Positions 2,548 through 14,203 of a stretch of 14,203 nt of DNA are shown in pieces. The stretch is from Candidatus Nanopusillus sp. (lineage in GTDB: Archaea; Nanobdellota; Nanobdellia; Nanobdellales; Nanobdellaceae), in NCBI GenBank assembly GCA_036845085.1, contig DAIUEN010000016.1, forward strand, positions 1 to 14,203, read 5' to 3'. The translations under genes and the position numbers were made by a program. The notes under the pieces are model-generated. The model searched no databases. It was given only the letters and a program-made list of their open reading frames with translations, and had not been told where the DNA came from. The number at the start of each line of letters is the position of its first letter. The stretch's first letter is position 1.

Positions 2548-2560
2548 TTTATATATTTTA
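2548..2560. promoter_or_regulatory. AT-rich TATA-like element (tttatatatttta) placed to drive the GC-rich RNA at 2581 (+), and possibly the minus-strand operon
   Basis: An archaeal TATA consensus (TTTAWATA) lies ~25-30 nt upstream of the first G of the terminal helix at 2581. The same palindromic AT stretch lies ~25 nt upstream of the second ATG (2528) of the small minus-strand ORF. Confidence 0.4.
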
Positions 2561-2580
2561 AAAATAAAGCTTATTAAATA

Positions 2581-2812
2581 GGTGCCCGTTGGAAAGTCCG
2601 CCTACCGTTAAAAACGCCCGGAAAACCGGGGGGAAGGAATTCCCGGCAACGCCACAGAAACCCAGGGGTGTATACCGATGAAGATGAAAGGTTAAGATCT
2701 TGAGGCAACTCAAGATCAACCTGGAGAGGTATACACTACCTTGAAAGGGCGTCCCGTTGGTAAAAGGATAGCCGATAAGAAAAATATATACTAAAGGCGG
2801 CTTACGGGCACC
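2581..2812 (+). ncRNA. rnpB: Candidate RNase P RNA, unusually small (~232 nt) and architecturally reduced
   Basis: The region is a GC-rich island. A terminal 9-bp helix pairs 2581-2589 with 2804-2812. CR-I GGAAAGUCCGCC sits at 2591-2602 and a CR-V-like ACUAAAGGCGGCUUA at 2790-2804. P4 pairs 2594-2602 with 2796-2803 and has the canonical bulged U at 2597. Internal elements resemble P8, P9, P11 and P12, with CR-II-like ACAGAAA and CR-III-like GAAAGGG. The ORF-track ORF 2558..2869 across it is spurious. Confidence 0.75.
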
Positions 2813-4467
2813 TAATAAGATTTTCCAGCATATACATAATATTTTGCTTCTCTTCCACAGAAAATACATTTTTTTCCATCAGCCTTTTCAGGATTATTAT
2901 AATCTATCCCTCTTATATCGATAGAGAATGCCCTTTTAGCATTTTCTGCACATTTTTCATCCATACAAAATGGTATTTTAAAGGCTAACTTATTTCCTAA
3001 ATTATTCTTTAATTCATCTAAACTTTCTATTTTTATAATTTTACTTTTTATATATTCTTGCGATCTATTTTTTAATTCCTTTTCATAGTCTGATATTATA
3101 TTTTCTAAAGATGAAAGTAAATATGTAAAATCTATTTCATATTTTTGAGATTGAGAATTAAATTTCCTAACAGATACAATAACAGTATTATTTTCAACCT
3201 CTTTTTTACCTATTTCTATCCTTATCGGAACTCCCATTTTTTCATATTCATTAAATTTCCATCCTGGGGTTCTATCTTCAGACAAATCTAATTTAACTCT
3301 ATATTTATCTTTGAGGATATTATATATTTTATTACAATAATCTAATATTTTAGAATTATCATATTCTTTTTGATATATTGGGATTATAACAATTTGTATA
3401 GGAGCTAAATTAAATGGTAATATCAATCCAATATCATCTCCATGTATAGATATTACTGCTGCTAATGTTCTCATTGAGATCCCAAAAGAAGTCTGCCATA
3501 CGTATTTTTTGTTTACTAATTTTACATCTTTAACATTTTTGTAAAAAATATCTAAAATTGTATTTACTAAGTCTACATTATCTTCAGATATCTCTCCTTG
3601 ATAGTATATTTTAGATTTTATTATTAAATTTCCTCCAGTAATAGTTAGTAAATCTCTATCTATTTCAAAAACATATCTATGTCCATTTTCATCGTATGAC
3701 TCAAATTTATTTTTATCTATCTTAACTAGAGGATGTCTATCTTCGAATACTATATTATAAGCTTTAGAAAAATTCCTTCCCAATAAATGAGTAGTACCTA
3801 TCTGCAAGAATTTACCATCTGGTAATATTGTATCAGCAGCCATGGTATAATCAGCTCCAGCAAACTTATCCCAATCAGGTCTCATAACCCAGAAGTGTGG
3901 AATTGATAAAAATTCCCAAAATATTTTAGAATATATTTCCATAGATTTAACAATCATTCTTTCAGCATCGTCTCTATCTTTATGAACAGTATGGGCTTCG
4001 TTCCAAAGTATTTCTCTCCCTCTTATCAAAGGTTTTGTAGCTTTTGTTTCATATCTGTATACAGTATTAGTCATATAAGTCAATAATGGAAGGTCTCTAT
4101 AAGATTTAATCCAAAGAGAAAACATATAATACATTTCTGTTTCTGAAGTAGGTCTTAGAATATAAACTGTTTCCACTTCTTCTTCTACAGGATTCGATGG
4201 CTTAACATAAAAAACTTCTTTCTCAAATCCCTTTATATGTTCGCTCTCTTTCCTAAATATTTCATAGGGTATTAATATTGGAAACCAATATGCTGAAAAT
4301 CCTTCACTATCCAACAATTTTTCTAATTCTGAAAGAATTTTTTTTATCATAAAATATCCATAGTTCGTATAAACAGGCATTCCTTTTATAGGATATCTAT
4401 CATCAATTATTTTAGTATCTCTTATAATATTGTTATACCATTCTGAAAAGTCTTCATCTTTCTTCAT
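2812..4467 (-). CDS. proS: Prolyl-tRNA synthetase, archaeal/eukaryote-like class IIa, with a C-terminal Cys-cluster domain and terminal Tyr
   Basis: The N-terminus FSEWYNNII...RYPIKG, the motif-2 region RYETKATKPLIRGREILWNEAH, YVWQTSFGIS...IHGDD.GLILP, the anticodon-binding region, CMDEKC...CIFCG and the C-terminal ...AGKSY all match archaeal-type ProRS. It contains an extra ~75-aa segment (aa ~243-321). Confidence 0.93.
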   Translation of the reverse strand: MKKDEDFSEWYNNIIRDTKIIDDRYPIKGMPVYTNYGYFMIKKILSELEKLLDSEGFSAYWFPILIPYEIFRKESEHIKGFEKEVFYVKPSNPVEEEVETVYILRPTSETEMYYMFSLWIKSYRDLPLLTYMTNTVYRYETKATKPLIRGREILWNEAHTVHKDRDDAERMIVKSMEIYSKIFWEFLSIPHFWVMRPDWDKFAGADYTMAADTILPDGKFLQIGTTHLLGRNFSKAYNIVFEDRHPLVKIDKNKFESYDENGHRYVFEIDRDLLTITGGNLIIKSKIYYQGEISEDNVDLVNTILDIFYKNVKDVKLVNKKYVWQTSFGISMRTLAAVISIHGDDIGLILPFNLAPIQIVIIPIYQKEYDNSKILDYCNKIYNILKDKYRVKLDLSEDRTPGWKFNEYEKMGVPIRIEIGKKEVENNTVIVSVRKFNSQSQKYEIDFTYLLSSLENIISDYEKELKNRSQEYIKSKIIKIESLDELKNNLGNKLAFKIPFCMDEKCAENAKRAFSIDIRGIDYNNPEKADGKKCIFCGREAKYYVYAGKSY

Positions 4468-4606: not shown

Positions 4607-4631
4607 GGGGTAAAGGGGTCTATATACCCCA
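4607..4631 (+). other. 5' strand of the 23S pre-rRNA processing helix; pairs with 7536-7560
   Basis: ggggtaaaggggtctatatacccca is complementary to tggggtatatagacccttttacccc (7536-7560) over 25 bp, with one G-U pair. Confidence 0.85.
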
Positions 4632-7535
<2,904 letters not shown>

Positions 7536-7560
7536 GTGGGGTATATAGACCCTTTTACCC
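7536..7560 (+). other. 3' strand of the 23S processing helix, followed by a T-rich tract (7573-7577) that is a plausible terminator
   Basis: It is complementary to 4607-4631. An oligo-T stretch (aatttttatt) follows immediately downstream. Confidence 0.8.

Positions 7561-13533: not shown

Positions 13534-14203
<670 letters not shown>

Follow-up and report, generated by a model that had tools for sequence, protein, structure and literature searches.

The 14,203-nucleotide (nt) stretch of archaeal DNA analyzed here (hereafter the window, meaning the whole stretch) carries on its forward strand, at positions 2580–2813, an archaeal RNase P RNA gene of 234 nt from which the P2 and P3 helices are absent and whose remaining fold is under selection. 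This RNA is very probably the functional catalytic RNase P RNA subunit of a Nanopusillaceae archaeon, and its reduced form, as judged from the homologous genes, is common to the eight distinct lineages sampled at this syntenic site.

The archaeal RNase P family of Rfam (RF00373) matched window positions 2580–2813 (+) with 91.3 bits (E 1e-24), above the curated gathering score of 84, whereas the next-best families had E values above 5. The alignment spans the whole model (positions 1–288), with high posterior probability in the conserved regions (CR) I to V, and these follow each other in the canonical order (CR-I 2591–2602, CR-II 2654–2661, CR-III 2742–2747, CR-IV 2778–2785, CR-V 2790–2804). 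An earlier reading of the letters (the original prediction) had singled out this segment as a candidate minimal RNase P RNA, a GC-rich island of about 232 nt in AT-rich DNA with a TATA-like element upstream, and had asked for the covariance-model search whose outcome is given above; the identity and the setting were both borne out. The GC content is 50.0% in the RNA, 21.5% and 28.0% in its flanks and 24.3% in the non-RNA DNA of the window, and the curated Rfam threshold catches the RNA, so that annotation is possible. The TATA-box-like element TTTATATA would, from the geometry of archaeal promoters, serve as its promoter: TATA-like 7-mers begin at −32 and −30 relative to A2580, and in most homologues they begin at −27 to −32, the exceptions being L120 (−38) and L123 (a match at −9 only). 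The transcript presumably ends close to the two limits of the gene.

Folded as a single sequence, the RNA reached a minimum free energy (MFE) of −95.7 kcal/mol (z = −7.3 versus 200 shuffles), and this fold recovered P1, P4 with its bulged U, P8, P9, P10/11 and P12 unaided. Local hairpins took the place of P5 and P7 in the same fold and were rejected, since the P5 and P7 pairings covary.

Using ProRS as a synteny anchor, we searched for homologues in relatives whose ProRS is 53–67% identical to that of the window, and found ten loci with an RNA of 232–235 nt at the same place and in the same orientation (L104/L105, L106, L108, L118/L119, L120, L121/L122 and L123; the L120 RNA, with a longer P15 and P1, measures about 238 nt). 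L104/L105 correspond to AP031373.1, a 773-kb genome, and the RNAs of L104, L105 and L106 score 85.5–86.6 bits with RF00373. Nine sequences were aligned (alignment A2), eight of them distinct (the window and seven homologues) and one a single-nucleotide variant, and the pairing and covariation counts given throughout refer to this alignment. With the hand-drawn structure, 90.8% of the 619 pair cells hold standard pairs, versus 34–51% when the 3′ partners are slid by 1–3 columns; 42 of the 69 pairs change on both sides, and in 500 shuffles none of the five measures was reached even once. Without knowledge of the drawn structure, RNAalifold returned the same helices, with compensatory changes in 46 of 69 pairs; in P7, P11 and upper P12 nearly every position covaries. 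The compensatory changes in relatives for which the original prediction had called are thus present by both counts. Structural conservation of this strength argues for a stable working state and not for decay, and on this comparative evidence the reduced RNA is best read as a functional form maintained by selection, not as a relic.

Secondary structure of the reduced RNA

The elements of the RNA and of its upstream region are as follows (window coordinates, all on the forward strand; base pairs, bp).

2548–2555 (+): TATA-box-like element TTTATATA, 24 nt upstream of A2580, read from the sequence
2580–2813 (+): RNase P RNA gene, 234 nt, 50% GC, Rfam RF00373 match
2580–2589 (+): P1 5′ strand (GGUGCCCGU at 2581–2589), pairs with 2804–2813 over 10 bp
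2590–2593 (+): J1/4 (UGGA), all that occupies the place of the P2 5′ strand and P3
2591–2602 (+): CR-I, GGAAAGUCCGCC, separated from P1 by U2590 only
2594–2596/2801–2803 and 2598–2602/2796–2800 (+): P4, 3 + 5 bp, with U2597 bulged
2603–2606 (+): P5 5′ strand (UACC), pairs with 2759–2762; 100% paired, 3/4 pairs covary
2613–2616 (+): P7 5′ strand (AACG), pairs with 2755–2758 (CGUU); 4/4 pairs covary
2617–2630 (+): P8 hairpin, CCCGG-AAAA-CCGGG; 4/5 pairs covary
2631–2644 (+): P9 hairpin with a GNRA loop (GGAA); 4/5 pairs covary
2645–2653 (+): 5′ strands of P10 (GG) and P11 (CGCC), pair with 2748–2754
2654–2661 (+): CR-II / J11-12 (ACAGAAAC), aligned to the same sequence, ACAGAAAC, in the model
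2664–2741 (+): P12 arm, built from a lower stem of 13 bp, an asymmetric loop, two further stems of 4 and 9 bp and a GCAA tetraloop (2705–2708)
2677–2688 (+): kink-turn (K-turn)-like bulged strand GAUGAAGAUGAA, opposite GGAGA 2723–2727
2742–2747 (+): CR-III / J12-13 (UGAAAG), aligned to UGAAACG in the model; UGAGAA in relatives
2763–2765 (+): P5–P15 linker of 3 nt, AAA in the window and CAA in relatives; the acceptor end of the tRNA is the candidate target of this putative 'A anchor'
2766–2773 (+): P15 remnant, GG-AUAG-CC; GG/CC in 8/9 sequences
2778–2785 (+): CR-IV, AGAAAAAU, aligned with high posterior probability to uAGucGAAU in the model
2786–2789 (+): AUAU, the sole nucleotides where the P2 3′ strand would be, conserved in all homologues
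2790–2804 (+): CR-V, ACUAAAGGCGGCUUA, comprising J2/4 (2790–2795) and the P4 3′ strand (2796–2803)
2804–2813 (+): P1 3′ strand (ACGGGCACC at 2804–2812), from covariation and RNAalifold

The terminal helix had been drawn as 9 bp, joining 2581–2589 to 2804–2812; this pairing stands, and its full length is 10 bp, as A2580–U2813 extends it. All of its cells are paired in the nine sequences, and three of its positions covary (G-C/A-U, G-C/A-U/C-G and A-U/G-C/U-A). Because the helix follows the 3′ strand of P4, its topology identifies it as P1 and not as P2. CR-I had been placed four nucleotides behind P1, but the gap is the single nucleotide U2590, four being the distance to A2594 in the first P4 pair; in every homologue CR-I (GGAARGWCC) also begins one nucleotide after P1. 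The proposed P4, built from CR-I and CR-V with U2597 bulged out, was recovered as 8 bp that are 100% paired in the nine sequences, with three of the eight pairs covarying.

The loss of P2 and P3 is visible at both places where these helices should lie. In the RF00373 alignment, model positions ∼10–35, which hold the P2 5′ strand and P3, have no counterpart, and neither has the P2 3′ strand, which takes up 6 nt of the model between CR-IV and CR-V. A helix that has truly been lost should be missing on both of its strands, and P2 is coherently missing in this way. A single nucleotide separates P1 from CR-I in 9/9 sequences, CR-IV is joined to CR-V via 4 nt, and the three-way junction of P1, P2–P3 and P4 is reduced to a 4-nt bulge (UGGA, 2590–2593) in a continuous P1–P4 stack. 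In the distal P15 region 41 model positions are replaced by 4 nt, and P16, P17 and P6 are absent. Without P2 and P6 all helices are nested; the RNA consequently has no pseudoknot, and plain MFE folding is able to find P4. The model deletions and the covariation in eight distinct homologous sequences therefore agree with the predicted absence of P2/P3 next to a retained core of the specificity domain (S-domain).

The ∼33 mostly A/U nucleotides at 2763–2795 had been described as all that is left where P15–P17 and P6 belong. These helices are indeed almost gone, but the segment holds the P5–P15 linker, the P15 remnant, CR-IV and the J2/4 part of CR-V. The length of the linker and its last two A's are invariant in the homologues, and an 'A anchor' role is suggested for it by analogy with A191 of the Methanocaldococcus jannaschii RNA (PMC6565675). 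The GG/CC remnant can be identified as P15 because L120 has a full hairpin, CUCCC-GAAA-GGGAG, at the same position. CR-IV is near-invariant among the homologues, as is the catalytic-core stretch 2778–2804 as a whole, and AGAAAAAU fits the consensus AGNNNNAU of this region.

The S-domain is complete from P7 to P12: P7, P8, P9, P10/11 and the upper P12 are 91–100% paired in the nine sequences, and all of them except the invariant P10 covary. P7 alone occurs as AACG/CGUU, GUUA/UAAC, GCCA/UGGC, GGCG/CGCC and GGUG/CACC. P11 (2650–2653/2748–2751) is 100% paired, with three of its four pairs covarying. The loop of P9 (L9) is GGAA, GAAA or GAGA in all sequences and may dock on P1, as it does in the M. 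jannaschii structure. CR-II reads AAAGAAAU or GAGAAAU in relatives. The architecture of P12 folds alike in 9/9 sequences, its upper stems being 100% paired with 13/13 pairs covarying; the lower stem is 57.8% paired in the MAFFT alignment, where it is misaligned, and pairs in the RNAalifold register and in each single-sequence fold. In the asymmetric loop of P12, NAUGAANAUGAA opposite GGAGA is kept in 8/9 sequences, and its consensus (a C-stem, a 3-nt bulge and tandem G•A pairs) suggests a K-turn, which would likely be an L7Ae site.

All the elements that the original prediction had listed, among them P8, P9 with its GGAA loop, P11, P12 with its GCAA tetraloop at 2705–2708, CR-II and CR-III, were found where it had put them. 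P5, P7, CR-IV, the K-turn-like loop and the P5–P15 linker had been overlooked.

Comparison with recognized forms of RNase P RNA

Archaeal type A RNase P RNAs are about 300 nt long or more. The RNA of the window shares with this type (RF00373; e.g. Pyrococcus and Methanothermobacter) CR-I to CR-V, P1, P4 with its bulged U, P5, P7, P8, P9 (GNRA loop), P10/11 and a long P12 that has a K-turn-like region, and it differs in its 234 nt and in the lack of P2, P3, L15, P16, P17, P6 and the pseudoknot. The hallmarks of type A, namely P16, P17, the pseudoknot helix P6 and an internal loop in P15, are thus missing; what is left of them is GG-NNNN-CC, or a 5-bp hairpin in L120.

Type M (Methanococcales and Archaeoglobus, with the cryo-electron microscopy structure of M. 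jannaschii; PMC6565675) resembles the RNA of the window in its closed P15 hairpin without P16, P17 and P6, in the 3-nt L5-15 linker and in the lack of the L15 internal loop that binds the 3′-CCA. Type M lacks P8 and keeps P2 and P3, whereas the RNA of the window keeps P8 and has lost P2 and P3. Type T (also type P; Thermoproteaceae, Pyrobaculum; PMC13462272) is likewise a strongly reduced form of hyperthermophiles for which a reduced protein set, with Rpp21 missing, has been reported. It keeps the catalytic domain (C-domain) with P2, P3 and P15–17/P6 and has lost CR-II and P12 from its S-domain; the RNA of the window trims the periphery of the C-domain and keeps an S-domain with CR-II, CR-III and a 78-nt P12. 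Types A, M and T are the sole archaeal classes recognized in a 2026 paper (PMC13462272), and the expectation that the present pattern of reduction would match none of the three proved right.

Outside archaea, reduction to P1 and P4 is known only in organellar RNAs, those of budding-yeast and Smittium mitochondria (Rossmanith 2012, PMC3790967). These RNAs also lack P2/P3 and keep P1, P4, CR-I and CR-V. However, they are organellar and extremely AU-rich and have lost the S-domain, retaining only P1 and P4 with or without P18, whereas the RNA of the window has an intact S-domain and is encoded in an archaeal chromosome among archaeal ProRS, 23S and 16S genes.

For a broader comparison, one genome per prokaryotic species was scanned for a pattern of CR-I, CR-II and CR-V, which yielded at least 100 archaeal loci with a similar CR-I to CR-V distance. 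The loci listed belong to Archaeoglobi, Iainarchaeum, Woesearchaeota and others, with no Nanopusillaceae among the matches listed; CR-II of the relatives proved to be AAAGAAAU and not ACAGAAA. In every one of the 100 matches listed, P2/P3 would fit into the space that separates CR-I from the P1 5′ strand, in contrast to the single nucleotide in the family of the window. The raw gaps among these matches are at least 15 nt, save for a few of 5–12 nt (e.g. L002, L017 and L040), which we attribute to a duplex prediction running past P1. A separate pattern scan of metagenome contigs gave six near-identical contigs, which resemble the Woesearchaeota RNase P loci of the comparison set, have room for P2/P3 and were set aside as not belonging to the family of the window. 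Viral contigs were scanned for the P1–CR-I junction, without a match.

The RF00373 score, 91 bits for the RNA of the window, is 143–190 bits for other small archaeal RNase P RNAs in which P2/P3 are retained. One RNA in the comparison set, an Archaeoglobaceae RNase P RNA (L001, 893–1136 (+), 189.6 bits), has a P3 of 2 bp with a 4-nt loop, a P15 of ∼3 bp and a P2 of 6 bp, so that shrinkage of P3 is not confined to nanoarchaea.

The nearest precedent in the literature is the Yellowstone nanoarchaeon Nst1, which encodes a short RNase P RNA together with Rpp21, Rpp29 and Rpp30 (Podar et al. 2013, PMC3655853). That RNA was reported not to be foldable into a typical secondary structure, no model was given, and its shortness was read as 'partial degradation' (PMC3655853). 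Samanta et al. (2016, PMC4919917) later described Pop5 as apparently absent in Nst1 and proposed that the C-domain had been remodelled; Rpp21, Rpp29, Rpp30 and L7Ae are the proteins reported for this organism (PMC3655853, PMC4919917). Nst1 and the organism of the window have in common a terrestrial nanoarchaeal source and a short RNA; the organism of the window belongs to a different lineage, whose best ProRS match is 67% identical. Searches of the literature on RNase P in Nanopusillus, Nanobdella and DPANN returned nothing beyond the Nst1 reports. A short nanoarchaeal RNase P RNA was therefore already known, and its architecture is not described in the literature searched.

Genomic context

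Three further genes are relevant to the position of the RNA gene and to its host.

2812–4467 (−): ProRS gene, convergent, 551 amino acids (aa), open reading frame (ORF) with the Pfam domains tRNA-synt_2b, HGTP_anticodon and ProRS-C_1
4619–7549 (+): 23S rRNA gene, complete, archaeal (Rfam)
13540–14203 (−): 16S rRNA gene, partial (Rfam)

The stop codon of the ProRS gene overlaps the last P1 pairs by 1–2 nt. The closest relatives of this ProRS are 67% identical and labelled Nanopusillaceae, Nanoarchaeota or Nanoclepta, which places the host in Nanopusillaceae (Nanoarchaeota), in keeping with the Nanoarchaeota-like genome suspected at the outset. With a best match of only 67%, the host is an uncultured terrestrial nanoarchaeon of a lineage of its own. 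The contig of the window is present in three public assemblies (metagenomes or sequencing runs).

At 551 aa, and 542–588 aa in relatives, the ProRS is longer than that of other archaea (∼480 aa), and in BLAST comparisons of the window ProRS to other archaeal ProRS a single aligned piece covers only ∼44% of the query. This points to an insertion, specific to the lineage, in the central part of the protein. The 23S and 16S rRNA genes are unlinked, with ∼6 kb between them that hold FlaI/FlaJ-like (T2SSE/T2SSF), S19 and tRNA-guanine transglycosylase genes; the same 23S-to-16S order was found in L104 and L106, and no 5S gene was found in the window. The 3′ end of the 16S rRNA (window 13540–13552 (−); L104 971–990; L106 970–990) reads GGAUCUAGUU instead of the usual GGAUCACCUCC, and the canonical anti-Shine-Dalgarno motif CCUCC is absent from the 16S rRNA of the window and of these two relatives.

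Upstream of the RNA gene, 1954–2397 (−) and 2385–2546 (−) form a conserved gene pair (an ORF of 47–56 aa and a protein of 141–149 aa without a Pfam family) that always stands before a ParA/MinD-like ATPase and is divergent from the RNase P RNA promoter. An 89-aa ORF at 930–1199 (−) matches the first 58 of 302 positions of Diphthamide_syn, has a counterpart in the short gene that follows the ParA-like gene in relatives, and fits the split diphthamide synthase reported for Nst1 (PMC3655853). A 103-aa ORF at 2558–2869 (−), which runs antisense through the whole RNA, was dismissed as a by-product of the GC-rich RNA gene, no gene being called there on any contig.

Proposed function, alternative explanations and significance

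In the M. jannaschii structure, pre-tRNA is held and cut by a CR-II/CR-III T-loop anchor, an A anchor in the 3-nt L5-15 linker and a P4 core with CR-I, CR-IV and CR-V, with L9 docked on P1 (PMC6565675). The RNA of the window keeps CR-I to CR-V, the P1/P4/P5 stack, a complete type-A-like S-domain and the 3-nt P5–P15 linker, and recognition of pre-tRNA should hence proceed as in other archaeal enzymes: the CR-II/CR-III T-loops would hold the tRNA elbow, while the adenosine of the linker would be stacked against the first base pair of the acceptor stem, beside the P4 active site.

A difference is predicted for the proteins. The M. jannaschii structure shows Pop5 seated on CR-IV and on the junction of P2 and P3, and Rpp30 bound to the P2–P3 regions of both RNAs, by which the dimer is formed (PMC6565675), so that removal of P2–P3 removes the Pop5/Rpp30 platform. 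By analogy with this structure, we infer a holoenzyme in which the Pop5–Rpp30 module is lost, smaller or rebuilt, which is probably monomeric, and which would be stabilized through its intact S-domain by Rpp21, Rpp29 and L7Ae. A conserved 147-aa protein encoded next to the RNA gene was considered as a divergent Pop5 and rejected, as it has no Pfam support (the best match, RIC1, has an E value of 0.024 and lies below its threshold).

Several observations weigh against a working reduced enzyme in this clade. The P15 remnant, the weakest element of the structure, consists of just 2 bp and does not covary, and the first K-turn consensus is missing in one relative (L108). Pop5 is reported absent on the basis of the incomplete single-cell genome of another species, Nst1. 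No RNase P protein genes were found within the window by Pfam, and neither these nor tRNA genes in any Nanopusillaceae DNA examined, the window included. Moreover, no RNase P RNA was found next to ProRS in L109, L110 and L111, nor at the Nanoclepta locus L107. In L110 (1–5033; ProRS 53% identical) the 23S rRNA gene adjoins ProRS and another gene overlaps the ProRS stop. The RNA gene has either moved or been lost in L109, L110 and L111, and part of the clade may have lost its RNase P RNA.

One alternative is that the RNA is a relic, still transcribed and folded but no longer the catalyst of tRNA 5′ processing; the lineage would then be moving towards the RNase P-free state of Nanoarchaeum equitans, with an RNA that has another role or is in decay. 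The relative N. equitans does live without RNase P (PMC3655853; PMC3790967), the Nst1 RNA has been read as partially degraded, helices regarded as universal are gone, and the gene is missing from the syntenic site in some related lineages. A relic is nonetheless improbable, given that the RNA has kept CR-I to CR-V, the U that bulges from P4 and the A-anchor linker, and that the stretch 2778–2804 is near-invariant. Compensatory changes, furthermore, maintain every helix across genomes whose ProRS are 53–67% identical, which is not expected of a decaying gene, and RNase P protein genes persist in Nst1 (PMC3655853). The RNA may also be an intermediate on the way to loss of RNase P, as the original prediction suggested, an idea already proposed by Podar et al.

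That P2/P3 are supplied in trans by a small RNA, or that the gene has been mis-delimited and reaches further upstream, is very unlikely. A precedent for split genes exists in the phylum, as N. equitans assembles tRNAs from separately encoded halves (PMC3655853); however, only AUAU is available for the P2 3′ strand, which is too short and AU-rich for a trans helix in a hyperthermophile. An extension upstream would run into the TATA-like element 30–32 nt away and into DNA of 21.5% GC with a divergent ORF, and the terminal helix, following the P4 3′ strand, is P1 by topology. Finally, it is scarcely credible that a different RNA family merely resembles RNase P RNA here. The RF00373 score does lie just 7 bits above the gathering score, but the deletion of P2, P3 and P15–P17 accounts for this low value, small archaeal RNAs that keep P2/P3 scoring 143–190 bits; the match covers all of the model, CR-I to CR-V are aligned with high posterior probability, and no E value below 5 was obtained with any other family.

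Overall, the RNA of the window is a conserved RNase P RNA of reduced type, outside the recognized archaeal classes and a structural variant of a known RNA. On balance we lean towards a wider reading, if by a narrow measure: Nanopusillaceae would have a fourth class of archaeal RNase P RNA, the first cellular (non-organellar) working form without P2/P3 or a pseudoknot, which co-evolved with a lost or remodelled Pop5–Rpp30 module and acts in a naturally monomeric holoenzyme with a minimal C-domain.

The helices P1–P4 are regarded as the core common to all RNase P RNAs of Bacteria, Archaea and eukaryotic nuclei. A selected family without P2/P3 would mean that the P2–P3 branch is dispensable in a living cell, and it leads to the prediction that Pop5–Rpp30 binding and dimerization have been lost or rebuilt. 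A fold backed by covariation now stands in place of the 2013 report of a nanoarchaeal RNA that could not be folded, and structural and minimal-ribozyme studies gain a small, thermostable and probably catalytic RNA without a pseudoknot. The finding also bears on how N. equitans lost RNase P, for which the RNA described here, if the fourth-class reading is true, would be a living reference point.

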